From: Sarea resinae
Taxonomy: Eukaryota
Length of the DNA: 63,723 nt
Reading direction: 5' to 3'
Assembly (NCBI GenBank): GCA_026026165.1
Contig: JAPEUD010000070.1
Coordinates: 62,001 to 125,723 of the forward strand
Positions 14,982 through 63,723 of the stretch are shown piece after piece (position 1 is the first letter of the stretch; each line of letters opens with the position of its first letter). The notes beneath the pieces were generated by a model that saw only the letters and a program-made list of their open reading frames with translations, was not told where the DNA came from and did not search any database. Position numbers and translations under genes: made by a program.

Positions 14982-15430
14982 ATGACTACAAATCTCATTA
15001 TGTCGGCTATCGAGGATATAAAATCATTGGGACCGGCCGGCATCGTCGCCTAGCTCAGGGCCCTTACCGCGGTAGATGCATTCGTGTATTTGTGCGTTGG
15101 GCGAAAGCCTATCGCCTTTACGCTACGCGTGGCGGCATTCCTCGTAAGCCTTTTTCTTTAGCAGGATAGAAAGGTGGGTAGGATATGATACAAGCTTCCA
15201 TGTGTGAATTTATGGCTCGACGTAGTGCTGGCCGTCCTGGCCTACGGCTGGAGAGAAGCCAACGCCTCGTCCGCGCTCGGGGGGCTCCTTTGGGCGCCAA
15301 ATGCTCTTGCCACAGTTTTTGGGAGAAGGGACGGGCAAGGCCGCCAAAGGTTGACTTGACCAAAGCGGGGGTCGTCCTCGGACAGCCGAAAGAAGAAGTA
15401 AGTGCATATTTTCTTTACTGTATTCATATC
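14982..15430 (+). pseudogene. Orphan membrane-protein paralog, copy B, pseudogenised
   Basis: MTTNLIMSAIEDIKSLGPAGIVA*LRALTAVDAFVYLCVGRKPIAFTLRVAAFL aligns with copy A exon 1. TAG at 15051 sits where copy A has Trp; acceptor changed tatag>tatgg; frameshift after LLWAP. Confidence 0.6.
15144..15298 (+). repeat. Right arm of the 155-bp inverted repeat (partner 11739..11893)
   Basis: Reverse complement of the left arm; also visible in the ORF track as two near-identical MIQ..ARRSAGRPGLRLERSQRL peptides on opposite strands. Confidence 0.92.
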
Positions 15431-16181
15431 CTACCCTTGTTGTTGTTTCTTAAGTCTTAAATCCCGTGCTTTGTTTCCCCTATGCTGTTTAAGAAAGGTT
15501 GCTCTACTGTGCTCTCTTTTAAGGGCTGTTTTACGTTGTCTAGATAAACACTAAACGTATCGCTTCTATTAAAAGACACTACTAATCATCTCTAGTAATT
15601 TGTGGGTGACCAGAGGATGTTTGGGTTGGATGGGTGGTTTGGGCGGGGGCGTTCCGGCTAGAGTGTTGTTTTGTTTTTTGTTTTGTTTTTGTTTTTTCTG
15701 TCTTTCCTTATTTCATTATCCACAGTCTTTACCTATAAAGACAGTCTTTATGTGAGGTGCGCTGCGCTATATGGTCGGCAAATAGGCATCGCCCGGACGA
15801 GCCGGGTTCTAGTAGTCTTTTTAGATGGCGCACGTAGGAACAGGTTTGCCTAGCTATTTACTGGTCCTTACACTCTACCGTTCCACTTCTATAGGTAGTC
15901 TCTCTCCTAGAGGAAACTACTCCCTCTAGGGTTCTCTCTATATTTTTTTAGGAGGGGTGGGGGGGGGGGGGACGTGATCTTATCTTATCTTTCTATCTTC
16001 CAAGAAAGTATTCCTCTCACCGCCGCCCCGACACCTCTTGACAAACGACAGCAAGTATGACGTATACCCGCGCGCGAGCAAAACCCATTTCAACCGTCTA
16101 GGTAAGTCAAAGCTATAGTATTATACATCCGCCCTGGCTATGCGGACAAGCGAGAGAAAACAACACGATGAGAGCCATCGC

Positions 16182-16182
<1 letters not shown>

Positions 16183-16218
<36 letters not shown>
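16183..16218. repeat. (GCGGAGA)5 tandem repeat
   Basis: Five direct units read in the sequence. Confidence 0.9.
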
Positions 16219-16373
16219 AGTAAAGGGCGGCACCACGACACGCTAGCGGATCCACATTGCGTTTTGCCCCCGGTATCGGCGTTCATCAGAACCCCGTAAG
16301 GAGCGTCTGTCTCTGTGATGTCGATAGAAGTCGAAACGGCTGGGTGGAATTGCGGCTTGGTTAAAGTCGAGAG

Positions 16374-16745
16374 CAGTGCTGCCAACAGTCCATCGGTCCA
16401 TCGATCCAAACAGTCCAAACGGTCCATCGATCCAAACTGTCCATCGGTCCAGTCCATGCAGTCCATCGGTCTAGTGCAGAGGTTGTGGGTGGACCGTTTG
16501 GACTGCATGGACCGATGAGATTTTAGCAAAAAAGGGGTAGAAAGGGTGGGGGAGAGGGGGGGAGCAACCTAATACCCCTGATTCTAGAATACATTCTGCC
16601 GCAAGAGATGCCTAATTAGGCGGTACCTTCCCAGTACATACCTACACCGCCCTGCTTACCTAAGCGGGTCGGTCCAAATCGGTCCAACACCGCTCGGTCC
16701 AGTCCAGACCCTTGGACCGGACCATTTGGACCGTTGGCAGCACTG
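16374..16745. mobile_element. Non-autonomous hAT-type MITE, 372 bp
   Basis: TIRs CAGTGCTGCCAACAGTCCA / TGGACCGTTGGCAGCACTG (18/19 match). Perfect 8-bp TSD GTCGAGAG at 16366-16373 and 16746-16753. Many subterminal CGGTCCA/TGGACCG repeats; no transposase. Confidence 0.93.
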
Positions 16746-17074
16746 GTCGAGAGTTGATGGTCATGCTGCCGATGCTACAAGAATCAAGTTCGCCTGGCGT
16801 TGTTGCTAAGTACGATCAGGCAAGGCAGGTACTCATGGCTGGCGATCTAACAATTGGCATTTCGCAACGCTAATCGCAAGGAGAGGCTACTAACAACATC
16901 CTTAAGGTACTCCGCCGCCAGCGCACATCAGACAAAGCAGACATTGAAAACTCAGGCCGTGCTGTTGGAGGTATCCATCCTTGACGTTTTGATCATCTCG
17001 CAAAGCTGTCCAGACTCCTCCGAGTAGGTACGCCAATTGAAATAGCCGAGCGGAATGCATCCCCAAAATTCCGA

Positions 17075-19050
17075 TCAACACTTCTTCCGAAGAGTCCAGG
17101 CTTGATTTGCCATGGCCTGCTTCTTCAGCGTCCCCATCTGGAAGAGCGGCCATCCCCCTTCTCCATTGACCTCGGCCAGTATCTTCGCGATATTGGCGCG
17201 ATACTGTTGTGCAATGGCCATCAATCTACCTCGAATCCATCGTCTCTGGTCTCCCGGCGTCGTCATCGCAGACCTGGCAACAACGAGTGGAGAGATGAGA
17301 AAGGTCCCCCCCAATGCTTTTGCACCGAGTATACCATCTGGGATTGAGGGACGGAACTTTTGCGATTCGTACAACTCGCGAGAAGCTTTGGTGTCGGTGG
17401 TGTATCCAATATGGTATGGTATGCTGGCGCAAACTTCGTCCACCATTTCTTGTAACCTCTCCTTCGCTTGGCCATAAGCTGGTATCAAGAGCACTTCTGG
17501 GTGCTTGTTTTCGAAATCGGGGTCGAGCACAGAGCCTCCGAGTGATAGACTGATGACACGAATGATGATGGACAACGTGAACATCCGTGCGACTCGGTAG
17601 GAGTTCCAGACAGAGGCAGTCCAGATATCGGTGTATGTGTCAACATTTTTGGGGTACTCTTCGAGAATTTCGTTGTCGGAATCTCCTGGCGTGGGCTTCA
17701 CTCTTGTATGTCGAGTGCGCTTCCATGTGGTAGGAAGGGTACTCGGCCAAAGTGCAAGGGCTGCATCAAGCTCCAACGCGCGGTCTATTAGCCCTTTGAT
17801 AGAATTGACGAAAGACTCATTCCTGGGCTGCTGAAGTAATTGCATAGCTAGGACTTGGAGATCGGGTATCTGGAGATATAGGTCCGTAAGCCGGCGAGCC
17901 GGACTAGACCTCTCGGGCAGCGGAAGATCAGCCGAAGACGGTAATGCAGATTCTTTGCCGTGGAAGAGTTCCGATATATTTCTGGAACCATGTATCCCGT
18001 GAAAAATCTGTTCCAATAAGTAAGATTGATCCAAACATGTGGAACGAGACGTACGAACCATCTGCTTCTGTACTGTATATAACATCCGCAAGCACATCTC
18101 GTCTCGTAATACCCCTTTACCACGAGACTTCAGCAATAGTATTGCTGCATCAGTGTGATTCTCCCACTGCGGCAGCGAATCAGGAGTCGCCGTGACACTC
18201 TAGCAAGCCGCATCCGTCAATTCTCGATTCTTAAAGATGTTCGTACGAATTCGGAACTGGGACTGGAACGTTGTGCTTAGCATTGGGGTTCGTTACCTCA
18301 ATCAGCCCAAACATAAGAATGGTCATCAGAGTGTCATTATTCTTGGAAACGACAGGATCTTGTAAAGCCTCTCGAGTACGCTTCAGTGCCTGGCCATACT
18401 TGAGGCGTGAACGTGTGATGAGATCCGGCCTAGATGAGTTGTTACCAAATACGGCCAAAGATACAGCCAGTGTGGCTGCGGTTAGGGGCGACTCCGGCCC
18501 GGCGCGCGTATAAAGCGACGGGAGGAATTGAAGATGGCCCCTGGGCGCATCTGCGTGTCCCGAGAGCAGTATGTACTGTCGAAAGAAAAAGTTGACAGCT
18601 AGATCTTCGGGAACTTGTGTCATGGCGAACTGTACGTCGTACTGTATATCCCCCACAGCTGGTACGCTATCCACTACAGCCAATGTACCAGGGATTGGTG
18701 CTAGATCATGAGGGGAATTGCTCGTCGAATTTGTAGAGCTCGTATCAGCGGCAGACGTTGATGAAGGCGGACTGCGTCGTGCACGCATCACCGTTGCTCG
18801 CGTCTCATTCCGGAAGAGCATATCCGTTTCGTTCCTGTAACCCAAGCACTCTCGTCTCGATTTGATACATCGCGCGCAGACAGGTCGAGATTCGTCGCAC
18901 TGCACTCAATGGAGAAATATCAGCGAGTCCCAAGACTCTGACCCATTTGAGGTGGTCATTAGATGCGAGAGGTGCCGCGCCAAGGGGTACCTTGATTCGT
19001 CTCTTCCGACACGTCTCGCAGCCTTTACTGAATCCGCCATGGAACCCCAT
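17075..19050 (-). CDS. Zn(II)2Cys6 transcription factor; join(19050..18991,18901..18297,18199..17075)
   Basis: GCETCRKRRIK|CDESRPVCARCIKSRRECLGY zinc cluster split by an intron; in-frame splice junctions; fungal TF middle region. Confidence 0.9.
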
Positions 19051-19539
19051 CGTTGACTGACACCAACATACGAAGCTCGCTTTTCGCACTTTCGATGCTG
19101 GATGGTATCATGTATGAAGCAATGCGAGGTAAAGTGGCGAGTGGGCGTTCTTCTCCAGTCGGCGGGGGCACGCTTGATCTCTAGGAGGACTCATTTCTCC
19201 ATAGATGACGCTTTGCGTGGGGCTACAACGGCGTCCTCATGGCAAGGCATATCTGCGGATCCTCCACATCCAAGTCCGTTCACGTCTTGATCTGACGTGG
19301 AGATGAGATGGTGAGGCTGAGCTCTCCGTCAGCTCGCTCGCTACTACTGTGCAGTAGGTACCGTCATCATCGGGCCGTATTGGGAAAGGCCGATGTCGAG
19401 ATGGGTGTCAGCACGAACTGAGGAGGCCATGCCGCACTGGCCAAAGGAAACGCTCCGGCGCCAAACAAAGCGATCCATTGTGATCAGGGGGAAGCTTCAA
19501 GGTTTGCGGCTTTCCAACAGCGCTGATATAGTAGTTGGG

Positions 19540-19770
19540 GCCATGTTCGAGGGATTAGGGGAAGTGTTTGCAGTGCCGGCCGTCTACGAGTACGCATTCA
19601 ATAAAGCGCCGACGAATATGAGGAGCATGGTCCAGGCCGTCTACGTGCTCTGCGCGGCGGTCGGGGATTTGATCGCGCTGGCACTGAATCCGACGTACAA
19701 GGATCCGGATCTGCTGTATATGTATGACCATCGCAGTGGCTATGATGGCAGCGATGTATCGGCTTCCGCC
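19540..19770 (+). pseudogene. C-terminal fragment of a POT/PTR2 peptide transporter
   Basis: GLGEVFAVPAVYEYAFNKAPTNMRSMVQAVY..ALNPTYKDPDLLYMY matches the PTR2 TM10-11 pattern (EYAY.KAP..MKS). It continues in a shifted frame as TIAVAMMAA; no N-terminal part seen. Confidence 0.75.
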
Positions 19771-20679
19771 AGCAGAACCAGAGGGATGAGGACGAGAAGA
19801 CGAAGATGAAGATGCAGATGCAGACGTCAAGTTCGTCTGGTGACCAGGCTATTAGAGTTGGTGAACACCTTCGACCTCCCATTCCAGGCTGATGAGGTCG
19901 TGCCAAGATATCAGGTCTCTCAGTGATGCCGTCGGGTGAGATACTCTACAGCTGCAGGCTTCGGGCAAGGTGGGCAGTACACAGTACTCGGTACAGAGCA
20001 GAGGTCTTCCGCGAGTACTGGTACTCGATACCTACCCACTCGTAGTACACTCGATCCAGCTAGTCCTTGGTGCAATTTACCTACTCCGGAGTATGCCACC
20101 CTCGCACCTTCGGTTAGCGGGAGCACGTCTGGTCGATCGAGTCATGGACCGAGTCATACGAGTACGAGTACATACCTTACCACATACCTACGGTACCTTA
20201 CCTTAGATCTCAGTGCCGGTGCCTGATGCCACAACCGAAATCAACCTTCATACTATGTATGTACAGTAAGGTAGTCCTCCGTACGGAGTACTCCGTAAAT
20301 GACGGATCAACTACTCCGGAGTACTTCGTAGTGGCCGTCATTACAGATCAGGGCCCAGAACGTTCCGCCACCCCTCCAGCTCCCACTGCCGCCCACCGCG
20401 GTCCATCGCTGTCCACCGCGGTCAGTCCTCGTCGATGGGCATTGTCCCGGCTAGCGGTGCCGACACCGCTGGAAGTTGCATGACTTTGAGAGGGGTCGGA
20501 CTCTTATCGATAAATCGATTCGATGACGAACGAAGAACATGACTGAAGCATGTCGAACCCCCCGCCAGACTTTGCTGACCAAACCTCGCGCGGCTGCGCC
20601 AGATTACTGAACAGTGGCTCCTCGGGAACCACCCTCGAGTGAGGTATATAGAAGCTTTGAATCTGCCAGACACTGGTGA

Positions 20680-21960
<1,281 letters not shown>

Positions 21961-22706
21961 ACAAAAGTTGGGATATTAGCGGGCATCGATCGTTTCTAGA
22001 TTGCAATCTTGCGCCATTTGAAATTCTTTGACGGCGATAAATCATCTTAGATATATAGAAGGAATAGAGCAAATGGAACCATTCAGCATCTGTACCTCAT
22101 TCTATCATAATAACCTCGAAGTAGAGGAGGCTAGTCTTGTCTTAATTGCTCCCGGTATTAAAGAGGTCATGGAGGTCAACGAGGTTGACGTGGTGGCCAC
22201 GCTTCCAGGCTGTCTCGACTCTTGCTCATCGATCTTGTTCGGGCCGATGAGTCGGCGATCTTCAAGATTAGATAAGGCTTGGAAACTCGTTTCGGCCTGC
22301 TCCGTCGTCCACACAACTCCACGACAGCCGATCTCCCATGTTACTGCCCTGCGCTGTACTCCACAAGAAGAAGCTACTCCGGGGTACTCCGTTACTAAGC
22401 TTCGGGGTCCAACATTACAATGCATAAGCAGTGAATGACGATAGGGCATCATCATTCTTCCACCACCAACCTTGCAGCGTCAGGATTCAGTTGCCCGCCA
22501 GTCAAGACCAGTAGCCAAAACGTTGGGCTGTTGCCTGCCAAGGACGCATCTCGTCATGACGACGACTCAATTCGCTTCTGTCGACTACGCTAAAAAGCTG
22601 CTGGCAGCCCGCGGCATTCATCTTCTCGCTCTTGCTTATCTTTGGGTATGACTACGGAGTATGGCGTACGGTTTTGAATAGTCCCATATGCTCTTGCTTC
22701 GTGAGC

Positions 22707-24545
22707 ATGTCTTCTGCTGCAGTTACCTCCGACTCCTCTATTGCAACAGCTCCAGATCAAAATGCCGAATCCACGCCTCTGCTGCGTAAATCGAGCGTTG
22801 CTTTGACAAGAGAACCTCAAAAGGCGCCTGGCCGGATCCGCGTCTTCATTGTGACCTGCCTTCTTATCTCTGCGATCGATTTTGGCGGCTACCTTGCGTA
22901 TGCGCCTCAGACCGAGATCTTTCAAGACATAATATGTCGGCGATATTATAGCCGCACGAATAGGGTTCCTTTTGGCAATGTTATCATCGACGAGAGCGAA
23001 TGCAAGCTTGACGCCATCCAGGGTGAACTAGCCCTCGTCAATGGATGGCTGGATACGTTCATTACGCTTCCAAGTCAGTCAAAACTGCTCCCAGAGTACC
23101 CCAGAGTTCGGCCGATAGATGATCGTGGACGCTCCACAGGCATCCTACTAGCCATCCCTTACGGAGTCCTTGCGGATCGTATCGGTCGCAAGCCGGTCCT
23201 GATCTTGGCCATCGTGGGCTATATAGTGACTGGTGTGCTCATTCGGGTGATTTGTAAGCTCATCTTGAGGCTGATATGATGACCGGTCTCTGAAGATAGA
23301 CAGGCTGGTGGCCAAATGTGTTCCCGCTTCGTCTGGTCTGGCTTACTCCTGTCACTCAGATCATGGGAGGCGGAGTTCCGGTAGCTTCATCAATGGTCTA
23401 TGTGATCTTGGCCGACGTAATATCGCAACATGAACGGTAGAATCTTCTCCGTATAGGGCGCGAAGCTATTCGTCCGACGCTGATTTTGGGACCAGAACCA
23501 ACAGGTTTCTTCAGATTCAAGCTGCTTCCTTGCTAACCGCAATTACAGCCACACCCATCAGCGCTGCTTTGATGACGAAGAACACGTGGATCCCTTACCT
23601 GTTAGCTTCGGTCATAACGATCCTAGGGACTCTGTTGGCTTTTGGCTTGCCGGAGACGCTCGAGCTCGCGGTCAAAAGCTCCCGAGCATCCCTCCTCGAA
23701 CTTGCTGACGATGAAAATGAAGCCGAAGATAACGTTCCTGTCAAGGGTGACATCAAGAGCCGAGTAAGGGAAGGTCTCCGAGAATTTGCCGCTTCAACAC
23801 ATTTCATCTGGACGAATCCAAGTGTCATGTTGGTGCTGTTCACGTTCCTTGTAGCTGTTTTCGAAAAACAGTCTATACTATTACTACTGCAATATGTTTC
23901 CAAAAGATTTGGCTGGTCAATCGCTCGAGTAAGCTTGGTGGGACCACGAAACCAAGAGAGCTCCATTAATCCTTTTGATAGGCAAGTATCCTTATCTCTG
24001 TCCAGGGGGTCGTCAAACTGGCTCTCCTTCTGATCATCTTGCCACTGCTGAGCATTTTACTCGTTGATCGATTGGGAATGAGGTCCGCAAAGAAGGACCT
24101 CCGATTGTCGCAAGGCAGCGCGTTTCTTCTGATGGTTGGCTCCTTGATCATCGGAATTGCAGCTGCCATACCGTCTCTCGTCTCTGGACTCGTGTTTCTC
24201 GCGCTTGGCTCTGCTTTGACACCCATAGCACGGAGTTTAGCCACTTCGCTCGTGCTACCTGTCCACGTCGGTACGCTCTATGCCGCTACCGGGCTGGCTC
24301 GGTCGGTCGGGACGCTCATAGCGGGACCCATCCTTGCCAACACTTTCCGGTGGGGGATGTCACTGGGGCATGCATGGCTTGGGCTTCCGTATATCGCAGC
24401 AGCGATACTCTATCTGTTTGCCTTTGTTGCAGTGTCGTGTGTACGATTGTCCCGCGACTCGAGTTCAGAAAGGCAAGCAGAGGAGCACAACGACAGTGGT
24501 GAGGATGTTCGTGTGTCTGAGTGCCCTGAACCAACAGGTCCTTAG
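22707..24545 (+). CDS. MFS transporter (multi-exon)
   Basis: MFS motif A YGVLADRIGRKPVL, multiple TM helices, GT..AG introns linking ORFs 22632, 23530 and 24039. Confidence 0.85.
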
Positions 24546-25478
24546 AGTTCGTTTCGATGTTATGTTCTACTGATTCTCCGCCGTGTCACGGCCTAAGAGG
24601 CAGATATGCTAGCATAGCTATTTTCTCTTTGGGTATCTCAATTATCATCATGGAATACCAGATAGGTGAAGAAGAGCTTCCACTGAGGGCATGGCCATAA
24701 TTTGCATTTCTAATCAGAATTTTGTAGCTACAAGATACGTTACAAATGGTGATACCCAATGCACATCTTCGGGATTTTGAAGGATCGATGATCTGAACCC
24801 AAAGACGAGCGTTCCTCAAAGTAAATCTGGCGGTCGGCTTCACAACAGGAAAAGTATTCGACCAGATACGAATATAATTGCGTGACTTCGACATTTACAG
24901 CCCATGCCTACTGCCTCCGGTATAGACTTTATCTGATCGTTGCCTTCTGATTCAAGCCGGCATGGCTGCTTGGTGAGAGGAATTAAAAAGGCAACTTTCG
25001 CTTGGAGCTCTAATCTTATCTGCTATTTCCGTCAGCATGCCTAAGCTTGGAGTCGTTTAGTGTCGATTTTCTGTTTGTTACACTCACCAAGCAGCTATCG
25101 TGCCGGCTTCAATGTTAGGAGATACTGAAAAAGAGCGGAATTATCTGTAATTTTTAAAGCATATAGTAAGAACCATTTATTTTCTAATGTTTCTCAACAC
25201 TGCTTCTTAGCAAGCGCTAGAATAAAATACCGCTAAAGGGACATTACCTCTCCAAATTGGTAGTTGTCAACTAAAATCTTACAGCGTCAGATAAGTTATT
25301 TAGGCTGTTTACCGCAACAACAACACTACGCGTAACATCTTATGTCTGACCAGGCAGTCCATAAAGTTCTTATGCGATCCTGATGCATTGGCTTTCGGCC
25401 CCCTCCCTTGATAGACTGTTGAATCTTGGACGGTTCAAGCTCTCGTCCACATCGTCAAACCCGTCGAGTTGATCGACC

Positions 25479-27096
25479 ATGACGACTCAATCTACGACCG
25501 AGTCCATACCCAATCCCCCGACCAAACCATCATGGCTACAGTTCTTCGTCGTCGTCTACCCGCTAATGCTCTTCTCCAATCAGCTCGTTGCCTTGGTGCA
25601 ATGGCCGCCTTCACCGCCCTTCAGCCGTAACGTAACGAACGGGTGGCGCGTCCTCTCCGCGATCATGATCAGCGGCCAATGGATGCTCGCGGTCTGGCAA
25701 CTGAAGTACCTCACGGATGACTCCTCTCGCATCATGGGAATCAGTACCCTCTGGTCCCAGGCCCTGGCGACGGTGGAGAAGGTTTTGTTTGCGAGTCCGC
25801 GCGGTCCCCACTGGGATTACTGGCAGGTTGTCGATGTGCGCGAGCCTAGGACCCGGCCCCGTTCCCTGGTGCTCGCTGGACCCTCTTCTCTGTCTCTGTC
25901 CCAGCGGCTCAAATGGGCCCTGGGCTTGATCTTCAATCCGCGGGGCATCGGCTGGAATTTCCAGCTGAAGCACGTATCCGCAGTCAACCCTTCCAGGCTC
26001 GCCCTCATCGTCGGCCGTACCAAAGCCTTGTTCTGGACTGTGCTACTAGTGGATCTTTCTACTCAGGTCACGCTCCGGACATCTTTCGCGTCGTCCCATG
26101 GCTCGGTGGGAAAGATTGACAGCAGACACATTACGCTCCGCGATCCGAATTTCGTCCGGGGCTTCACGAGGACGTTGGCGTTTGGCTCCAGCGCTTACTT
26201 GTACATGAGCATGACGCACCTCTTGACGTCGATCGTTGCCGTCGGAACGGGACTCAGCGCGCCCCAGGTAAGCTCCTACCAAAACTTGTCTATTGGCTTT
26301 CCCTTGTATTGAAGGATAAAACTAGGACTGGCCGCCTCTGTTTGGCAAACTATCCGACGTCAAAAGCGTGCGTCGATTCTGGTGTCGATTCTGGCATCAA
26401 TTACTGCGCAAGGTAGGTCGGCCACCCAGACTCGAGAAAGAAGAAGAAGAAAAAGAAGACCCCAGCACGCATGCATGCGTGCCTATACGCATCTCTATCG
26501 CGACACGACAGAGCTGATCTAGACCCCCATCGTGACTAAAACAGGCACTCGAAGGCTTCACGGGCGCTTTCACAGACATGCTAGGCTGTCAACGCGGGAC
26601 CCGCCTCGCGGCCTCCATCCAGCTCTGGACCGCCTTCACCATCTCGGGCTTCCTGCACGCCGTGCAGATGCTCGCCCTCCCTGTCCCGCCTTCTGCCTCG
26701 GGCCTGACTCTCTCGGACCGCTCCATGGGCTTTTTCTACTTCTTCGTTCTCCAGGCCGCCGCTATTACTGTCGAGGATGTGTTCATGGGGCTGTATGGGC
26801 GCTATTTCGGGCGTGGTGGTAGTGGTGGGAAGACCATTGGAAGGAAGGAAAAGACTCGCGGCTCGGATACTTCCACTGCTGCTTCTACTAACACTTCTCC
26901 TTCCCCTGCTACAACCGCTTCCACCTCCAGCCCTTCTCGGCCATGGACCACATACTTGGGCTACTTCTGGGTCACAGCCTGGTTTTGGTTTTCGATCCCC
27001 TTTGCCGGCGACCTGCTACTGCGCCTGCGCCTCGGCGACAAGGATATCTTCCCCGTCTCTCCGGCCAAACTGGCTCTAGACCAGCTCGGCCTATAA
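25479..27096 (+). CDS. Membrane-bound O-acyltransferase (MBOAT_2 / wax synthase, TRI7-like); exons ~25479..26267, 26326..26412, ~26545..27096
   Basis: NPRGIGWNFQ, DWPPLFG..VRRFW.RFWHQLLR, FTISGFLH, FFVLQAAAITVED, LGYFWV.AWF motifs. Confidence 0.88.
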
Positions 27097-27198
27097 GACT
27101 AGCTCGAGAGACATTCGGTGAGGTGAAGAGAATGCATTGATAGATAGAATGGCAGCTAGGAACGGGGACAGGGACAGAGACAGGGGTAGGATAGAAGA

Positions 27199-27201
<3 letters not shown>

Positions 27202-27235
<34 letters not shown>
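27202..27235. repeat. (GA)n microsatellite
   Basis: About 17 GA units. Confidence 0.95.
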
Positions 27236-27238
<3 letters not shown>

Positions 27239-28696
27239 TATCAACACCACAGCCAGCCATCGAACGCCAGTCGCCACAGATAGATAAACCCCCTATCATC
27301 TGTCCACGCTTCCAAACTGCCAAGACGCCTGGCACCACCACCATCACCACCACCGAGCCCCCTCTGATTCAACTCTCTGACACGCCAAGCACGCCAAAGT
27401 CAGGAAATATCTTCGGGGGTGATTGAAAGCGTTTATAGGGGCTAGGACTAAAGGGCCTAAAGGAGCTAAAGGGGGTCTGCGTCATGCATCGTCTAGCACT
27501 CTTTTGCTCGTTAACGGCATGTATATATATATATATATGTATGGCCCGGTAGTGTGCGTAGTAGCATTATCAATCAATCAATCCATCAGCCGGCTTACCA
27601 CTCCTGCTCGTGCTCTTCCCTCCCGTTATCCTACTTCTAGTCAACTATGTAAATCCGATATTTCCTTGCTTTTGTTTCCTTTCCTTTCCTTCGCTCACCA
27701 CTTTTTATGATTATCCCTCTCCTATCCATTTCCTCCTTTTCCCCTTTCCCATTTGCCTTTTTCTCCGTCTTCTATATTCCGCCCCCCTCCCCTGTTCATC
27801 CTATCTCGAACCCCCTAACCTCATCCCTCCCCGCCTGTCCCCCTTTCCCCTTTTCTTCCCATTTGGATCCCAGTGGCGGAATAGCATGTCTACCCCTTTT
27901 CCTCAGCGTATATATCTACTGGCGGATATCTATTCGGGCCTTCTGACCATACTGGGCGGAATTGCTTGTTCCTTTGTGGACGGATTGGGTCCATTTGTTC
28001 GTGGAGTTCCTTTGTTGGCTGTGTTGCTGGGGGCCTGGAGGGAGCCGCCAATCAATTGCAACGGACCTGGAAGATACCCCTGAGCTACAGCGGCACGGAT
28101 GAGGCTGTGATATGCACGTGCCATACAGTTCCTGGTCAATTTCGGAGATCCTCACCAACACCTTCATCTGCCGTAACCATTGACATAGAAGTGTTCTGAC
28201 CGGGCCATAGATGAGCTGCCACCGGATGAAGAGATTGTCAAGATGTTGACATCGTCAAGATCGTCAAGATCGTCAAGATCGTGGGCATCGTGGTGTATCG
28301 ATCGTAAACGTAAAGACATGACCGTAAGGCGTGCACCTAACCGTGAGAACGATTCAGTTCTAAAGTCTTCTTTTGGTACATGTGCAGTATCGATGCATTG
28401 AACGACAATTGAAAAGTAACCTGACGAGTACCGAGCAATGACCAGCTCAGTGAGAGTAGCACATCCGGGGCTCCAACACCACGGGAACGGCGTCGGCCCG
28501 CACTTGGAAGCGGAAGCCCTTCAATTCGGGGACGCTACCGTAGGTGGTCTTCATTAGGGCCATCTATCCCAATTAGAGCTCGTCGCCGGCACAACATCAT
28601 CTCCTACCACAGGGCATCATCATCACCAATCTCTCTTTCTCACGCAACACCACAACCACCACCCAGTATCCAGGGCATTGCTTCACCACTCTCGTC

Positions 28697-29665
28697 ATGC
28701 CTCCTCCACCAACCCCCCAGCGTCGCTCTCCAGAGGTCCTGCCCCGAATCATCTACTACCACCAAACGCACTACTTGAACTCCAACTTCGTCTCCGTCCT
28801 GCCCCTCCTCCAGCAGAACAGTCCCGTCACGCACATCATCATCGCCGCCATCCACCTCAACGCCCCAAACCCAGACCTCATCACCCTGAACAACGACCCC
28901 TACGACGCGCCCCCACACGCTCCGCTCTGGAACGAAGTCCGCACCCTGCAGTCGCGTGGCATCAAATGCCTGGGCATGCTCGGCGGCGCGTGTCCCGGCT
29001 CCTTCAAGATCCTCGATGCCGACGAACAGACGTTCCGCACATACTACGAGCCGCTGCGGAAGATGATCGCGTGGTGCCAATTCGACGGCCTGGACCTCGA
29101 TGTCGAAGAGCCCACGTCCCTGCCCGGCATCATCCGTCTCATCGACTACTTGAAATCGGACTTTGGCCCGTCGTTTCTCATCACGCTGGCACCCGTCGCC
29201 TCGGCGCTCAAGGGCGGGCCTCATCTCTCGGGCTTCTCGTACTTTGATCTGGAAAAGGCCATGGGGCGGCATATCAGCTGGTACAACACGCAATTCTACT
29301 GCGGGTGGGGCAGCATGGACAGCGTGGAGGATTACGAGGAGGTTCTCTTCCGCGGCTGGTTGCCGCACAAAGTTGTCGTGGGTCTGGTGACGAACCCCGC
29401 GAATGGCGCCGGCTGGGTGCACGATGAGCTTTTGAGGGGCAGTCTGGGTGTCTTGAGGGACTTGGGCGGCTTTGGAGGTGTGTTTGGGTGGGAGTGGTTC
29501 AATTCTGTTACGGCTGCAGGGGGCCAGGCGGAGGGGCCGTGGGGATGGGCGAGATTGATGGGCGAGATCCTGGGGGTGGACCAGAGGCGGCCGAACCGGA
29601 TCTCCAGGGAGGAGAGTGCATTGAAGGCCGATGCGATGAAGAGGGTTGGAGGGAGTGCTCCTTGA
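28697..29665 (+). CDS. GH18 glycoside hydrolase, Endo T/Eng18B-like endo-beta-N-acetylglucosaminidase, no signal peptide
   Basis: Catalytic DGLDLDVEE motif, GMLGGA, ITLAPVA, WYNTQFYCGWG; N-terminus is not hydrophobic. Confidence 0.82.
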   Translation: MPPPPTPQRRSPEVLPRIIYYHQTHYLNSNFVSVLPLLQQNSPVTHIIIAAIHLNAPNPDLITLNNDPYDAPPHAPLWNEVRTLQSRGIKCLGMLGGACPGSFKILDADEQTFRTYYEPLRKMIAWCQFDGLDLDVEEPTSLPGIIRLIDYLKSDFGPSFLITLAPVASALKGGPHLSGFSYFDLEKAMGRHISWYNTQFYCGWGSMDSVEDYEEVLFRGWLPHKVVVGLVTNPANGAGWVHDELLRGSLGVLRDLGGFGGVFGWEWFNSVTAAGGQAEGPWGWARLMGEILGVDQRRPNRISREESALKADAMKRVGGSAP

Positions 29666-30456
29666 GGCGCGATCGAGCGAAGGAAAGAGTGACTACGGCC
29701 GTCCACAACGGCCACCCTCAACCTCTACAGAGATTCTCTGGTTCACACCGACGGAACCATTCGCCCTGCCCAAACCGTTCTTCTCCAGCAGCACAATAGC
29801 CAACCAGCCGGCCAGCAACCAAATGGACAGAAAACTACACGACGCCCTCATGCAAAAGACCTACAACCACACCCGCCACACCACAGACCGCACTATCAAG
29901 CATCCCTCTCCCCCAAAGGCTCAAACATCACCATCTCTTTCAAGCAATCCGATCGCAACCCGAAACACATCATACGCGCTACGTCCGTCCAGCCCCGCGG
30001 CCAGTCGTGGAATCTCCACACGCTTTCAATTGTCTGTTGGCTTCATCTTCAGAGCATCTATTACGCGTCCGGACAGACTTTCTGATCGTGCACGCTTATG
30101 CCCAAGCTTCAGTGGTCGGTGCTGGGATCTATCATCTGGAGAGGAGAAGTCTGGAAATCTTGGGCTGCGCCGGGGACGAGAGGGTGGTTGGGTATGGTGA
30201 ATCCAGAGAACGATAAAACCTTCGTTTGGCCTGGTCGTGGGATTTGGTCTTCACGTTGGGCGAATAGATAACCGGCTCTGATCGCAGCGAGTGCATCGAG
30301 CTAGTCATAGTAGGAGGGCTCTTTGGACACGAGTGGGGGACGATCGATAAAGGCACTCTACGCTATGCATCACTCAACGCTGTCTCGATTGAAGCTTTTA
30401 CTCGCAGTCATATAGAAACCCTGCCCGCAACCTACCAAGCAAATCAATGAAATCGC

Positions 30457-31414
30457 TCAAGACAAGAACTTATTAAACCACTCGATGCCCTGCTGTTCGG
30501 CCTCATCCATCGCCTTGCGATCCTTCTCACTGCTCCAATCGCCCCGGAGCGCGAACCCATGGACCTGATCCTCATAGATGCGCAACTCATGCGGCAGGTC
30601 CGTCTTCTTGGCCATGAGATCCTGGATCTGGCCCACGGTGCCCATGTCGAGCAGACTGTCCTTGTCGCCGACCGCCAGGCTCAGCGGCTTCGTGACGCCC
30701 TCGAAATCAGCCGGCACGGCCACCAGGGACGGATGACAGGCGTAGGCGGCGTCGACGCCCTGCTTGCCCGGCTCGGGCGTATGCGCGGCCAGGATGGCGT
30801 AGCGGCCGCCCCAGCAGAAGCCGATGGCGCCGACCTTGTTGGTGCCGGGCACGTAGCGCACCGCGTTGATGAAGCCGTCGATCAGCGGTTTCGACACGGC
30901 CTCGCGGTGGCCGATGAGCCAGGGCCCGAGCGTCGCCGCCACCGATGCCGTCTTCGTGCCCTTTTCCACCAGCGTGAGCTGCTCGCGCGTCTTTAGTGGC
31001 GGCTCTACATCTTGCAGGAATTCGATCCGCAGCGAGTCGTTCTCGTGCACGTCCGGCACGTATACGTAGAAGCCGGCTTTGGCGTATTCGTCGGCGAGCA
31101 GTCGCGTGTTTTTGAATTCCCAGCCGAAGACTGTGCGCGTGGGAGCGGTATTGTCAGTCATGCGCCACCAGCGAGAGGAGTAGGGGGGGCGGGGGAGCGG
31201 GGGGTGGTGAGTTGGTTTATGTGGTTGGTAGGTAGGTTGGCTGGTTGGCTGACTTACTGTCGACGAGGAATACGATGGATTTCTCTTTGGACTTGCTCTC
31301 CGGCTCGCTCACGTAAGTGCGCAGCCCACCGATGGTGTCAACGTGCCCTTTCGGCGTGCCGTCGTGGAGTTTGCCGGAGAGGCAGCAGCTGCTCATTCCG
31401 ACGCCGGTGGACAT
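30457..31414 (-). CDS. Dienelactone hydrolase family protein; join(31414..31258,31130..30457)
   Basis: CCLSG..H.GTP.G N-terminus, GFCWGG nucleophile motif, HGFALRGD. Confidence 0.92.
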
Positions 31415-57510: not shown

Positions 57511-58248
57511 ATAGCGCTGGGCGAGACTTGCGCTAAGTAAAGCTGAGAAGAGGCTCAGCGCCGGCGGTGTTCGTTTCCTTTGATCATCTATCATCTCCGG
57601 AGATAACTCGAATCCGCGAGATTAGGGGGAGTGCAGCTTTTGGGCCGATCCACCAAATACGAGCAGCTTCGGAATTTATGATAGACTCCCCAGCAACGAT
57701 CAGAAATCACCCCCGGATTGCCGAGATGCGCACTTCGATCCTCAGCCCACATAGTAAGATATAGAGGAGAACGAGAACAAGGAGAACCCGGGCCTGAACC
57801 GAGCTCGACCTCAATCTGGACGTCATACTCGACCAGCAAACACCTTCCTTACCTACTACAAATACCACACCACCCTAACAGCACCTACCAAGCCTCCTCT
57901 CGACCTTCAAGCCATAGCATTGCGTGACGTCCATCCACCCCTATCCTTCAGACCATCAAGAAGAGCCGACATCAGCACCAGACCTAGAGCAGCAGGATCC
58001 GCACGCCTCCATTGCGCCGCCCGACAGATCCGGCACTATGCCCACACCCACAGCGACAGTACCAATCTAGCCCCATACATACGTCCTGTCCCGAACACCG
58101 ACAACAACGCCGGAACGGACACCGAGACCGCTCACGAAACATCTTCCCTTTCGCATCTAGTCCTGTCAATCAGCTAAGATATAAATCCAGCGAGATAGTA
58201 CAAGAGACTAGATTGATAATAGTTTCTATACTATAGGTTTCTAAAATA

Positions 58249-59706
58249 CTAGTTCTTAATTGGACGCCCTTTAACATAGACTTTAGCTATGTTTCTGTCA
58301 TCTCCGCTCATAATGAATTTCTCAAACACATTAGCAATAGAGTCGAAATCTTCAACGAAGGTTATAACACCCTCGTACTCCCCACTAGTCTTGATTTCCA
58401 GCGCATCGAAGTCCTTGCCAACGGCGAAGGTTCCTATCTTGCTATCTAATCCACAGAGTTTTGCTCCACCTAGTGTCGCAAGGTAAAACGTCTCACATAT
58501 TGACAAAGGCTCATCCGCGCCATCTGTGGACAGCTGTCTCGCTTTAGACACGATAAACGCCTGTCTCATCGCATCAAGAATCGAGGAAGAATAACCACCG
58601 CCACTGTCAGTTCCTAGACCGACATTCATATCCCTCCGAAGATACTCGCGGATGGGCGCGACTCCGAAGTCGCCGCCTGTAGTATTAGAGATCGGACAAT
58701 GTGATACGCCGCAACCGAGATCTTGAAGCCGCCCCATGTCGTAATCATCCATAAATATGCAATGAGCCAGAATTGAGCGGTCATTGAGCAATCCGAAGTG
58801 TTCATAAAGATCAGATTCATTTCCAAACTCTGGAAATAGAGACTTGGTGACTTCCATTTCTTGAATGGTTTCATTGAAATGTGTCTGAATCGGCAGATCT
58901 GGATTCTTCGCGGCAATTCTTCCGAGCCCAGACAGTACCTCCCGGTCGCAAGCAATAGCGAAACGTGGCGTCAAAATCGGTGTGATGAGCTTGAATTCCG
59001 GATCGATTTTTCGAGCATAGGCAATGAAGTCCTCCGTGACACGGAGAGATTCCTCCGCGCTGCTGTCTTTGTAAAATCCGGGCGAGCTTTGGTTCATGTT
59101 GCATTTGCCAACTAATGCTCGCTGACCCTTCTCCAAGCACGTGTCGGCCAGTATCTTCGTAGCTTCGCCGTGTAGAGAGCCGTAGTAGGCTGCTGTAGTG
59201 ATGCCTTGTTTGATCAAACCGTCCACGCATGACGCATACGTCTTCCGTGCATACTCGGGATCAGCGAATCTTGCTTCGTGAGGGAACGTGATCTTGTTGA
59301 GCCACTCCATGATATTTTTGCCCCTTCCCATCCCCCGCTGCGTCCATTGAGGAGCGTGGTTGTGTGTATCGACAAATCCCGGTATCAAAAACTCTCCATT
59401 GTTGAGCATCCGGAAATGCTGTACTTTGTGTCGCGAGAGAAGCTCATCAACTATTTCCTCGACCACATCCTTTTGGAGCAAGACAATCGTGCCATCTGTG
59501 CCGACAATCAGAAGGCTGTTTTCAATGATCGCGATCTCAGAAGACGAGACAGAATGTATGATAGTGCCATAGACGGCGAGAGGTAGGTTTGGACGAGTGC
59601 TGTCCTTTCGGACAATGCCAGATGGTTGAAGCGACGTCATAACGGGACGAGACTTGCTTAGTAGATATTTGAGGGGAGAGAAAGAATCCGATATATATCG
59701 CAACAT
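58249..59706 (-). CDS. Guanine deaminase family amidohydrolase, intronless (start may be the Met at 59640)
   Basis: PGFVDTHNHAPQ, TTAAYY, GQRALVGKCNM, TPRFA, IQTHFNE, HCPISN, GLGTDSGGG, GDDRNIAKVYV. Confidence 0.92.
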   Translation of the reverse strand: MLRYISDSFSPLKYLLSKSRPVMTSLQPSGIVRKDSTRPNLPLAVYGTIIHSVSSSEIAIIENSLLIVGTDGTIVLLQKDVVEEIVDELLSRHKVQHFRMLNNGEFLIPGFVDTHNHAPQWTQRGMGRGKNIMEWLNKITFPHEARFADPEYARKTYASCVDGLIKQGITTAAYYGSLHGEATKILADTCLEKGQRALVGKCNMNQSSPGFYKDSSAEESLRVTEDFIAYARKIDPEFKLITPILTPRFAIACDREVLSGLGRIAAKNPDLPIQTHFNETIQEMEVTKSLFPEFGNESDLYEHFGLLNDRSILAHCIFMDDYDMGRLQDLGCGVSHCPISNTTGGDFGVAPIREYLRRDMNVGLGTDSGGGYSSSILDAMRQAFIVSKARQLSTDGADEPLSICETFYLATLGGAKLCGLDSKIGTFAVGKDFDALEIKTSGEYEGVITFVEDFDSIANVFEKFIMSGDDRNIAKVYVKGRPIKN

Positions 59707-59939
59707 CTAGCGAGGATGTTATCGTGTTATGTCACATGTACAGCGGTCTCAGGCATAAGTTTCGTGAGCTCGTTACTTTATAAGCTGACTAGGGTACGCA
59801 GGATCTGTCGCTCGAGCCTGATAGATCGCCTTATACCTTTCTATCTCTATAGACAACTAGAGTTGAACTTGAACTCTAAAAGTATGTACTCTTTTTAACA
59901 ATTATAATTGGTAGAAATAATTAAGTGAGAGTAGAACTC

Positions 59940-62900
59940 TAGTAGTAGAACTTTAGTCAGTTAATACTGTTAAAATACTCTCTTTCTTTAGGTGTATTAT
60001 ATCTTCTAATCTTTTCTATTATAATTCTATAAAGCACAATTAATTATCTTGTGTTATAGCTATAATATCACTAAATAAAGTGCTTAAAATTTATTAGAGT
60101 AACTTAGAGCTACTTTAGATAAGTACTAAAGCTAAGATTTAAAGGTAGAATAGGTAAGAGTAAAGAGTTATTAGACTGCCTCCTAGGCTTCTAGCTATAG
60201 TAGAGTAGGTAAGAATAGCATAATTAAATAGGCTAGTGCACTGCAGCGTGCTAGTGTCATTCTAGCGATGTGAAACTAATACTATAGATATAGATATTGC
60301 TAGTAGGCACTGACTTTATAATTGCACTAAACACTAGCCCTAATAGCTAGCGCCCCTATTAATCTATATAACTAATAACCCTGCTTAGCTTACCTAAACG
60401 TTGCTGAACTACACTAGGTAGTTACTCTACACTGCGCTAAACTCTATACAGCACCTCTATTAGTAGTAGCCCTTATAATTACCTTCTCTCCTAGGACCTA
60501 GTCCTCTAGGTCCTTTGTTTACAATGTATAACATTATAGTGTTAAGTCTTTGTCTTGCTAGCGCCTTTATAGCGTTGCTATTCGCTGCAACCAGTGAATT
60601 TATATAGATAATAAAGAGAGTTCTTTATCCTATTTGCTTAGTTTGCTAAACGCTGCGCTAGAGTAGCAGCAGTGAATAGATAGAGTAAATGCTTTAAACT
60701 ATCTGTATTAGGCATTCTCTCTATTGCTTAGAGGTCGCTTAGCTATAGGTGTGTAGGTATAAAACGTAGGTGATCTAGTGCGCGCGCGCACAATTAAACT
60801 TTTTGCACCACGTTTTTAGGTACATTCTATATGCTTATCTGCCTATTATAAACGTTCCTAATCGCGCCTCTATTGTTCTACTATATATGCACAAGCCCTA
60901 TCTGAATCTAAAGGAGCCTCTTAAGCTCTATTAGGAGCTCTGTCTGCGCTATGCTAAGTGCCTTAGTGCTATCCTAGATATTGTATACAGCTGTCCTAGC
61001 TCCTTAGCAAAGTGTACACGCTGCGCCTAGCTCTATAAGAAGTGCAATAAAGTAAGCAATGCTCTTAATATAGCTCTAGGCAGGCTCTAACTAGGCTCTG
61101 TATAGGTGCTATATAAGTTCTATAAGCAGTTTAATTAGCTAGCTAAAGCAGCAGATATAGTAGCGGCTTTTGCAGATAATAACCTAGCTAAAGAGCCTGT
61201 ATTAAGTGCTCTTTAAGCTAAACAGCGGCGTTTTACAAGGAGCGTTAAAGCCTATATTAATACCACTAACTGCTATCCTTTAGACAACGCTCTATATATT
61301 GCTGTCGCTACTAAGCGCCTAGCTAACAGTGTTAAGAGACTGAATAACATTCTTTGCTATGCTATAAGCTAGCCTAGCTTATTACTAGCTTAGGGCTGCG
61401 CTAACTAAAGCTTATAGTTCGACCTGCCTTTAATTACACGCGCTAGTAAGAGTAAGGATAAGGATAACAACAATATAACTACACCTCTAGAGAGGTCTAG
61501 CAATTAGGCTAGTTAGGGCTAGGCAAGGCAAAGCAGTTAGTAATAGGATAGTAGTTCTTTCTGTTTCCTTTGTTTACTAGATAGCTTTAGGTTCGCGCTA
61601 GGACAGCGCTAGGGGTTTAATTTCACTTTCTTTTTTATAACTTTATCTCCTCTTATAACTGTAGCATTGTAGCTCTATAGCCTAATAGCCTTCTACAAAG
61701 ACTGTACACTATTAGCATACAATTGCATTGCAGGCCTACCTCTACATTAGCTTGCTAAAACCACCTAAAAACCTTTGTAGGTAAAAGAGGTAGAAAGAGT
61801 TCTAATAGCAGCTCTTTACTAGTGCTGCAACAGCGCGTCCTTTCTAGGACAGCTGTAAGGTCTTCTTCTTACAATTACTTGCAGCTTTAGGCTATACTTC
61901 TATAGCCTTCCTTGTAGGCGTTTTGTTACTAGCATCTCTAGGCTAGCTAGAGAGTCTTTATAGAGTAGTAGATTCTTTCTTAGGTAGCCTCTTAGCCTCT
62001 TAGCTGTCGCCTCTACAGCGCTATCACTAAGTAGTTGCTTCTTTAGTTAACTACAAGGCTTAGTTAACAGCACACTAGCATCCTATTCCTTGTTCGCTAG
62101 GCTCTTATGCTAGTTAGAGAGTAAGTGCTGTTTATAATCCTATACTAGGTCTATAGCGTTTGCTAGGTGCTCTACTAGCTCCTAGCTAGTATTATCTACT
62201 AGAGCTCTTTTCTACTTAACTAGATATTGTCGCTCTCTTTTAAGTACTCTGCAGCCTAGGATTTTTTTAACAATCTACTTAACCTAGCTATTAACTAGCT
62301 TAAAGTGCTAGTCTAAGGTATTGCTGTCGCTGTAGTAGCGCTTAAGTAGAGACATATAAAATATAGAATAGATAGATCTATAAGCCTTAGAGAGCTATAA
62401 CTAGTAGGCTTGCTTGCCTACAGAGTTAAGTACTATAAATAGGCCTATATAGCAGTGTTCTAACTTCTTACTTAGGTGTATAGTGCTAAGGTTGCACGCT
62501 GACAGCATAACTCTATTACCTCTTTTGTATTGTATTAGCTTATGTTTCCTATTGTACTACTTAGCTTAGTACTACTATACCTTAGTAAGATCCTCTTCTA
62601 GTCTTTATCTTACCTCTTAGAGGATATTAAGGCGCTTGTTTGCTGCTAGCACCTCTCTCTCTATAGCATTATCTACGATATTAAGTTGCAGATCTAGGTT
62701 GTAGCTATATAGAGCATAGAAGAGTGATATTCCTATAGACAAATATATGCTATTATTATATACATACTTAGCTATAGGTAACAGCAGAGCCTAGTTGTCC
62801 TAGCAGCTGCTTATATAGCACTATAAGTAGTGTTCTAACGTCTAGTTTTGCCTCTTAGTCTAGCTATCTGTCTGTAGGTAGAAGGCAGTGCTAAGCTAGT

Positions 62901-63723
62901 TCTTAATTCGCATTTAATAGCATATAGCTAACTAAAATTTGCTTGCGAATACACTGCCTCTATCTAATATAATGCGCTTTAGATTGCTATACGCTGTTAT
63001 TACAACGTCAATAAATATGTCTGCAAGTATAGCGGCATTTAGATTTGTCTAGTATAGAGTATATTTTGCTATCTTTGTATAGCGGTTAACTACTACTATT
63101 ATTATGTTATAGGCCTTGCAATCTCTTATGTTGCTTAGTAGCAGGCCTATAATAAAATCTATAGTGATTTCTTTAAACAGCTAGTAGGGTATAGGTAACG
63201 ACTATAGCTCGCTGTATAGGCGATGCCTAGGCACCTAGACCCTTTAACATATATTGCACTTATTAATATATTCTTTAATATCCTTAGCTAAATTAGTCTA
63301 CTAGTATTTACGCTAGATCACCTCTGTCGTTCTCTTAGCGCTAAAGTAGCTACTAAACAGGTTATTATAGTTTATTCTTATAATTTCTAACCTAATAGCT
63401 GTATCACACAGTATATATACTTTGCCTTCTAGGCGCAGCAGGCCTATAGAGTCTATTTTCCACTTTTCTTAGCCTGTAACCTCCTTAGTAGGAATGCTTC
63501 TAATCTTTTCCTTAGCGAAATAATCTTCCTACTAAGTCCTAAGGATAATGTTAAGCAGCTAGCTTGTTAGCAGCTTATACGCTCTTTTATTAGCAGCTGC
63601 CTTATGCACTGCTTGTCTTATATAGAGGTGTTTAAACTTATCTCCTAATGCTAGCTTATTAGCATTGTTATTTAGGCTAGGCCTAGGTGTCACTCTAGTG
63701 CCTCTCTATCGCTCTTTGGGGTT
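59940..63723 (-). mobile_element. RIP-inactivated Ty3/Gypsy (chromovirus) LTR retrotransposon, 3' portion, truncated by the window edge
   Basis: Strong TpA excess and CpA/TpG loss; no ORFs in the track. Minus-strand relics: integrase zinc-finger region (..YINKCNIC*RV, ~63240-63370), ITIDFIIGL (~63150), LSTAFYLQTDS*TKRQN*TLEHYL (~62820-62896), chromodomain QYLVK*KR..S*ELVEHL (~62160-62280). Confidence 0.92.
60848..61507 (+). pseudogene. RIP-mutated spliced antisense ORF within the retroelement's 3' region, Cys-rich (Zn-cluster-like)
   Basis: LCLRYAKCLS..VYSCPSSLAKCTRCA*LYKKCNK; intron 61052..61105 (gtaagc..ctaac..tag); helical exon 2; intron-like 61364..61417 (ataagc..ctaac..tag); in-frame stops are TAG/TAA, explainable by RIP. 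Confidence 0.6.

Follow-up and report, generated by a model that had tools for sequence, protein, structure and literature searches.

A spliced antisense gene relic in a mutationally inactivated chromoviral retrotransposon of Sarea resinae

The stretch of Sarea resinae DNA analysed here (the window: 63,723 nt of GenBank assembly GCA_026026165.1, contig JAPEUD010000070.1, positions 62,001 to 125,723) ends within the remains of a Ty3/Gypsy retrotransposon of the chromovirus type. Downstream of the pol gene of this element, on the opposite strand, lies a three-exon gene (plus strand, 60848-61546) that has been wrecked by repeat-induced point mutation (RIP). The window copy of this gene is dead, having lost its start codon, two cysteines and a 5' splice site and acquired seven exonic stops. 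As a whole, the account that we consider probable is that of a RIP-killed chromovirus carrying a two-intron antisense accessory gene between pol and the 3' long terminal repeat (LTR), with a promoter at the LTR edge and a small nuclear DNA-binding regulator as its product. An earlier note, made from the letters of this DNA alone, had described a spliced antisense relic of three exons downstream of pol, and the frame, both introns and their CTAAC branch sites are found where it placed them.

The frame of the relic runs on the plus strand from 60848 to 61510. Its 221 codons include 11 stops, each of them TAG or TAA; the remaining five frames hold 17-31. A low stop count alone is weak grounds for a real gene, as 11 stops where about 21 are expected is not rare over six frames, and the frame could on that count be a chance product of AT-rich RIPed DNA. 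When the read-through translation, with stops as X, was searched in full with HMMER against 1,835,955,588 representative proteins, it matched a protein of 194 aa (P0003, E 5.3e-32) and one of 172 aa (P0004, E 3.1e-4), and nothing beyond these two. Both are 'hypothetical proteins' from metagenome-assembled fungal genomes, labelled Sarea resinae and Pleopsidium flavum; their records, KAI9829878.1 and KAI9873706.1, belong to contigs of 139,551 nt and 6,830 nt, respectively. A word-indexed search with the RIPed relic gave no match. The pairwise alignment with P0003 spans the homologue from its first residue to its last and is interrupted by two subject gaps of 18 residues each, which fall on or next to the intron-like segments (the first is set by BLAST a few residues off intron 1). 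Identity extends to 93 of 193 aligned codons, and in 61 of the 100 mismatches the residue of P0003 can be reached by undoing C>T or G>A changes alone, as against four in a control with the direction reversed. Undoing RIP-type changes lifts the identity from 48% to at most 80%. All seven exonic stops align with Arg or Gln of P0003 and can be reached in the same way, in keeping with the earlier note's reversal of TAG codons. A chance frame is already refuted by the homology, by the alignment with its RIP-reversible mismatches, and by the conserved positions of the introns; its probability is negligible.

A profile built from P0003 and P0004 yielded five member proteins among 3950 candidates, and a scan of metagenome contigs confirmed three loci (L001, L002 and L003) among 232 pattern matches. 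None of 610 pattern matches had been confirmed in a first scan of metagenome contigs, none of 35 in viral contigs and none of 601 in the contigs of prokaryote genomes. Both introns are canonical in L001 and L002, as is the first intron in L003, and all are in phase 0 at positions identical to those of the window relic. The gene has about 195 codons and two short spliceosomal introns (Table 1). Its extent had been given as 60848 to 61507. The start holds, since the ATA at 60848 aligns with the Met of the homologue, as the proposed reversal to ATG implied; the end does not, as 61507 is a stop created by RIP and the relic is some 30-40 nt longer, reaching about 61537-61546. The protein family and its introns appear to be undescribed. 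By language-model features in the Atlas, the clusters nearest to P0003 are of unannotated Ascomycota proteins: one of 132 aa with 157 members (score 0.90), one of 198 aa with 52 and one of 228 aa with 63. The family could extend well beyond the five members found by sequence.

Other copies in the genome were compared by placing contigs of the DNA run that contains this genome on the window stretch at 80% likeness. The copies differ almost exclusively by transitions (308 of 318 differences). Inside the gene, 3-7 other contigs are listed for each differing place, and at most places their letters are less mutated than those of the window. At 60951 all five other contigs have G, which turns the TAT codon at 60950-60952 into TGT and restores a Cys, a change that had been proposed from the window sequence. 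At 60987, G is found in four contigs (depth 1758 of 2183), so that the TAC codon at 60986-60988 becomes TGC, again restoring a Cys. These codons specify the second and third Cys of the motif in the other copies. The motifs by which the gene had been noticed, KCTRCA*LYKKC and, upstream of it, CLR[Y]AK, are both present in exon 1.

The damage to the gene is part of that of a larger AT-rich block, which reaches from about 59850 to the window end at 63723 and has a GC content of 0.23-0.44, compared with about 0.54 elsewhere in the window. Across this block the TA/AT index is 1.9-3.1 and the (CA+TG)/(AC+GT) index 0.67-0.91, the values for 1-58000 being 0.63 and 1.22. The block thus combines an excess of TpA, a depletion of CpA and TpG, and near-exclusive transitions between copies, as in a RIPed repeat. 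We read it as the 3' end of a RIP-inactivated Ty3/Gypsy chromovirus, whose sense strand is the minus strand. The pol relic is seen as a single minus-strand frame from 63723 down to 62050, with 37 TAG or TAA stops in 558 codons; the frame continues, with stops, to about 61820, and the window terminates within pol. Pfam recognises Integrase_H2C2 (7.7e-8) and SH3_Tf2-1 (7.2e-12) in the read-through translation, and the relic has both the H2C2 zinc-binding domain and the catalytic core of an integrase. Pfam Chromo is not reported for it at E <= 1, yet it aligns through the stretch of the L002 pol in which Chromo is found (6.8e-14).

L002 is a 7677-nt metagenome contig that holds a chromovirus with intact gag-pol. 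Pfam identifies zf-CCHC in its gag, and RVT_1, RT_RNaseH, Integrase_H2C2, rve, SH3_Tf2-1 and Chromo in its 1355-aa pol. The antisense gene of L002 is open, has intact splice sites and lies on the opposite strand to pol, tail-to-tail with it, and is an intact homologue next to a Gypsy pol of the kind that the earlier note had envisaged. Gene stop and pol stop are 360 nt apart in L002; the corresponding gap in the window is about 275 nt. The window pol relic is 36% identical to the L002 pol over 521 aa, and because their integrases are only this similar, the arrangement of pol and antisense gene is taken to be old.

The DNA to the left of the gene is interpreted as the 3' LTR because the homologous stretch sits upstream of gag in L002 and beyond pol in the window. 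In a RIP-tolerant local alignment, window 60311-60636 matches L002 7306-7644, upstream of gag, in the same orientation with a score of 78. The scores of shuffled sequences had a mean of 38.7 (sd 5.5) and a maximum of 55, so that none of 200 reached 78, and a reverse-complement control scored 46, a value found in 18 of 200 shuffles. A block of 43 nt is common to L002 and L003 in the same orientation and scores 37, where the highest of 200 null scores is 29. It corresponds to 60473-60512 in the window, where it lies about 335 nt upstream of the gene start, compared with about 400 nt in L003. A gapped alignment of the L003 block alone with the window was not significant (score 44, with 46 of 200 shuffles as high). 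A blastn search with sequences collapsed to purines and pyrimidines was discarded as meaningless, as it gave matches everywhere. Summed contig depth, which is a rough measure, is about 400 in the unique flank, 4400-6200 over the gene, 15000-31000 over pol, and 37000-75000 over 60101-60482. The last of these is the highest of the stretch and covers much of the inferred LTR. Candidate starts of the LTR are 60807, at a CGTGG..TGCA junction common to L003, and 60777, at a joint in one contig. Its candidate end, about 60164, is a loose end in ten contigs, which an indel could explain equally well.

The gene (61546-60848) lies between the end of pol (about 61820) and LTR-homologous DNA (60636-60311), on the plus strand where pol is on the minus strand, and the two are likewise opposed in L002. 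It is found in other copies within the genome and, intact, in the divergent L002; not every copy would have it, as judged by a depth below that of pol. The view of the earlier note that it belongs to the chromoviral element, and is neither a neighbour nor a nested stranger, is supported because it is multi-copy, because L002 has the same tail-to-tail arrangement and because the DNA on its far side is homologous to an LTR. Several elements often make up one RIP block, and 59850-60163 is repeat DNA that remains unexplained, so a host gene or nested element that merely abuts a truncated Gypsy copy, all having been RIPed together, might be imagined. Given the arrangement in L002, the LTR-homologous DNA beyond the gene and the multiple copies of the stretch, this explanation is close to refuted and deserves hardly any credence.

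Table 1. Features at the right-hand end of the window (positions are those of the window)
Feature	Position	Strand	Basis
Exon 1: start codon now ATA; six-Cys motif with two Cys now Tyr; 2 stops	60848..61051	+	Homologue alignment; other genomic copies
Intron 1: 54 nt, phase 0, intact GTAAGC...CTCTAAC...TATAG	61052..61105	+	Intron at same position in L001, L002 and L003
Exon 2: helical middle of protein; 2 stops	61106..61363	+	Homologue alignment
Intron 2: 54 nt, phase 0; 5' splice site mutated to ATAAGC; GCTAAC branch site and TATAG 3' site kept	61364..61417	+	Intron at same position in L001 and L002
Exon 3: formerly acidic tail, now Lys/Asn-rich; 3 stops	61418..~61537	+	Aligns with P0003 tail to last residues; triple stop 61538-61546
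Degraded 3' part of Ty3/Gypsy pol: integrase zinc-binding domain, integrase core, SH3_Tf2-1, chromodomain relic	62050..63723	-	Read-through translation; Pfam; L002 alignment
Purine-rich, polypurine-tract-like tract in spacer between pol relic and 3' end of antisense gene	61621..61655	-	Read from sequence; similar tract at L002 ~1650-1690
Inferred 3' LTR, ends approximate	60164..60807	-	Core 60311-60636 homologous to L002 DNA upstream of gag
Very AT-rich RIPed DNA (GC 0.23-0.35), lower-copy repeat between inferred LTR and host gene	59850..60163	.	Summed depth ~3-9x unique flank
Intact single-copy amidohydrolase-family host gene flanking RIPed block	58249..59706	-	485-aa open reading frame; Pfam Amidohydro_1 4.5e-52; unique depth ~400

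Several observations count against the gene being a regular component of the element in the place assigned to it. The window, which ends inside pol, shows no target-site duplication or primer-binding site, and it contains no LTR pair, as no part of the RIPed block is repeated elsewhere within it. The cassette (60865-61437) has a summed depth three to five times below that of pol (61629-63723). One contig joins 60777 to 61627 and thereby skips 849 nt (60778-61626) that include the gene, the shorter side of this joint being only 27 nt. Many copies of the element may lack the cassette, and the possible absence of the gene from many copies suggests that it is dispensable. Finally, in both the window and L002 a purine-rich tract is found on the pol side of the gene.

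The position of these tracts would suit an unusually long LTR whose U3 starts at the purine tract next to pol and contains the gene, which would then be present twice in each element. No good polypurine tract is evident directly beside the inferred LTR start, which also favours such an arrangement. However, the LTRs would then have to exceed 1.4 kb in the window and 2 kb in L002, and summed depth over the gene is the lowest, not the highest, of the repeated parts. Moreover, the CGTGG..TGCA junction of the window and L003, 41-86 nt from the start codon, could itself be the border between polypurine tract and LTR. We therefore regard a gene within the LTR as highly unlikely, and prefer to place it between pol and a shorter LTR.

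Some smaller features of the LTR region are recorded here. An alternating run, GTGCGCGCGCGCA, stands unmutated at 60778-60790 amid heavily RIPed DNA. It is placed beside the joint 60777/61627 of one contig, where the 3' LTR has its inferred 5' edge, or just within that edge. Upstream of gag in L002 (7329-7353, minus strand) there is a hairpin with a perfect 10-bp stem and a loop of 5 nt. The 3' arm of this hairpin and the bases that follow it (AGAACTGAT.GCTGGCCTCC, plus strand) are 95% conserved at L003 265-284, beyond the antisense gene. The hairpin had been considered as a primer-binding site, an idea that was dropped because L003 has this motif beyond the gene. The motif may belong to the LTR as a conserved element.

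All members of the protein family share the motif C-x2-C-x11-C-x8-C-x2-C-x6-C, set among basic residues and followed by a helical stretch, and in several of them an acidic tail comes after this stretch. In L002 (573-1601) exon 3 runs for 342 codons, is rich in Ser, Pro, Arg and Lys and includes an acidic patch and a KKKRK stretch; Pfam finds no match in it. The other members have a short acidic tail there. As the region is GC-rich, it may not be coding along its full length in L002.

Six cysteines among basic residues call to mind the Zn2Cys6 factors of the Gal4 type (PF00172), whose signature is C-x2-C-x6-C-x5-12-C-x2-C-x6-8-C. The family shares with them a second half of C-x2-C-x6-C followed by Pro, as well as a helical stretch and then an acidic tail. 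The earlier note's description of the cysteines as zinc-cluster-like can be retained for the linker and the second half, which fit the signature, and not for the first half, in which C-x2-C-x11-C deviates from it. The protein of the window family also differs in being only about 190 aa long and in being without a fungal_trans middle domain. Thus, it resembles Zn2Cys6 factors without matching them. A function of this kind has to be set against two negative results: Pfam Zn_clus (PF00172) is found in none of the five members at E up to 10, and the PDB holds no significant sequence match. The PDB search gave a designed helical protein at E 0.004, which is probably compositional, and a LIM protein that was not significant. 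The Zn2Cys6 pattern itself occurs nowhere in the window. When an Atlas model of residues 20-75 was compared by structure, clusters of the Zn(2)-C6 type made up 7 of the 10 nearest rows (TM 0.58-0.62 by query), a result that amounts to a lead for so short a stretch. Prediction of a homodimer with zinc gave a score of 0.03 (mark 0.32). As read from sequence, six cysteines with basic residues, a helix and an acidic tail would form the layout of a minimal activator of the Gal4 type.

How such a gene might be expressed, and how it might keep its introns, can be pictured as follows. The accessory gene, lying opposite to pol in the interval before the 3' LTR, would be transcribed inward from a promoter of its own in or at the edge of that LTR. 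The distance from the candidate LTR edge to the start codon is only 41-86 nt in the window and L003. The introns would be recognised only in the antisense transcript, as the genomic RNA would hold their reverse complements. The genomic RNA would be copied by reverse transcription unspliced, with the introns included. Because antisense introns stay unspliced in the genomic RNA, a retrotransposed gene would therefore keep them. The earlier note had argued in the same sense, and the conserved intron positions fit this. The product would have a basic N-terminal domain with six cysteines, probably binding zinc, a helical middle and an acidic tail. It may act as a small nuclear DNA-binding regulator, whose target would be the LTR of the element itself or host chromatin, in a role comparable to that suggested for the antisense proteins of the plant elements Grande and Retand, for brtn of Boty or for HBZ of HTLV-1. 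That the antisense protein has a regulatory role is suggested by its architecture. The more specific proposal, in which a DNA-binding regulator that depends on zinc is produced from antisense RNA with its start in or at the 3' LTR, is possible, with a likelihood of roughly one in three.

A further homologue does not sit comfortably with a gene that serves a retrotransposon. In L001 the gene lies 257 nt downstream of the gene for the small subunit of acetolactate synthase, near ELP1, and no similarity to gag, pol or an LTR is found in this locus; after about 95 nt another plus-strand gene starts. The family therefore occurs both in elements and in a host context. Because this homologue sits alone between housekeeping genes, genes of the family are likely to have moved between host and element, in either direction. 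In L001 (10452-10570), removal of the canonical second intron leads to a stop after two codons, and a D/E-rich acidic run follows in another frame; a database model (P0005) reads through this intron. The tail of the L001 copy may be frameshifted or alternatively spliced.

The stand-alone copy raises the question of whether the gene is a passenger, that is, a host gene that was transduced into one chromovirus lineage, does not serve it and is being lost. The lower depth of the cassette relative to pol and the contig that skips it would agree with this, as would the finding that P0003 is predicted as a single gene on a contig of 139,551 nt. On the other hand, the window element and L002 agree in the place and orientation of the gene although their integrases share only 36% identity, and the L002 cassette is fully open, with intact splice sites, beside an intact gag-pol. 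Useless cargo should not outlast that much divergence. We therefore think a passenger unlikely, and favour an accessory gene that belongs to the element.

A bolder version of that preferred account can be formulated, in which the chromovirus lineage encodes a miniature Gal4-like transcription factor that binds DNA by a zinc-cluster-like domain, dimerises by a helix and activates by an acidic tail. Its gene, antisense, intron-containing and driven from the 3' LTR, would control the LTR or counter silencing as a counterpart of HBZ, and would have moved between elements and host chromosomes, seeding stand-alone regulators such as that of L001. Taken with all its parts, this version is rather doubtful.

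Beyond the element, the RIPed block is followed by a host gene of the amidohydrolase family (Table 1). A short AT-rich dip (58200-58400, GC 0.355) coincides with the 3' end of this gene and is distinct from the main RIPed block. Far to the left, the window contains an inverted repeat with arms of 162 nt (11739-11900 and 15137-15298) that are 90% complementary and 3236 nt apart. No open reading frame of at least 150 aa is present between the arms. Such a repeat could represent a foldback element or a DNA transposon of the non-autonomous kind.

Accessory genes distinguish 'complex' from simple retroviruses; few LTR retrotransposons have any, and what they do there is unknown. As a kind of feature, antisense accessory genes in the interval from pol to the 3' LTR are not new. 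The fungal case is brtn of Boty, which is said to have been described by Zhao et al. in 2011 (Virology 417:248). According to the available parts of the papers that cite it, brtn is an additional gene, located after pol and before the 3' LTR and opposite to pol in strand (PMC8365987, PMC7264820, PMC4227169, PMC5987419), and one consensus is without the beginning of brtn (PMC8365987). By the descriptions in these citing papers, and not by sequence, the likeness to the window element is close: in a fungal chromodomain Gypsy element, the interval from pol to the 3' LTR holds an additional gene, opposed to pol, whose presence varies between sub-families or copies. No protein named BRTN is among the two HMMER matches or the five members from the profile search. 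A full-text search of the literature gave brtn as the sole example of a fungal accessory gene, and in none of its results is an antisense gene of a fungal retrotransposon described as Cys6 or zinc-cluster-like. The word 'antisense' does not occur in a survey of LTR elements in fungi (PMC3248453).

In plants, the available text of PMC7264820 names maize Grande, rice RIRE2, Retand and PvRetro13 as elements with antisense extra open reading frames (aORFs) in the interval from pol to the 3' LTR, alongside Boty of Botrytis/Sclerotinia. Those of Retand, which have been likened to HBZ, mostly encode a TRP28 domain for which DNA binding is predicted (PMC11963269, available part). Within the available portions of both sources, the resemblance of the aORFs of Grande, RIRE2, Silene and other Retand elements, and PvRetro13 to the window gene is one of position and orientation; their proteins either are nuclear or have predicted DNA binding, with a suspected part in regulation and an unproven function, and introns of antisense open reading frames are not mentioned (PMC7264820, PMC11963269). 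The plant elements, as far as they are described there, differ in belonging to non-chromovirus lineages and in having a region of 2.9-6.6 kb between pol and the LTR, compared with about 1 kb in the window element. Their protein families are unrelated to that of the window, in which TRP28 or any other Pfam match is found in none of the five members.

HBZ is encoded in antisense near the 3' LTR, is spliced, and is a nuclear, transcription-factor-like bZIP protein that modulates both viral and host transcription. It is the antisense gene of a deltaretrovirus, HTLV-1 (PMC11963269, available part). The window gene resembles it in being antisense near the 3' LTR, spliced and transcription-factor-like, which makes HBZ a functional analogy for the mechanism proposed here. 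HBZ differs in coming from a vertebrate retrovirus and in being a bZIP and not a Cys6 protein, and there is no sequence relationship between the two.

To the known antisense genes, the present case adds a defined, unannotated family, all of whose members are 'hypothetical' and without a Pfam match, with a recognisable architecture like that of DNA-binding proteins. Although the window copy itself is functionless, it demonstrates that a spliced gene can be recovered by a reader from heavily RIPed DNA. The family also provides a clean illustration of how antisense introns outlast retrotransposition. L002, as an intact element, is suited to testing antisense transcription, splicing and the effect of the gene on transposition, and the stand-alone host copy opens capture or domestication to study.

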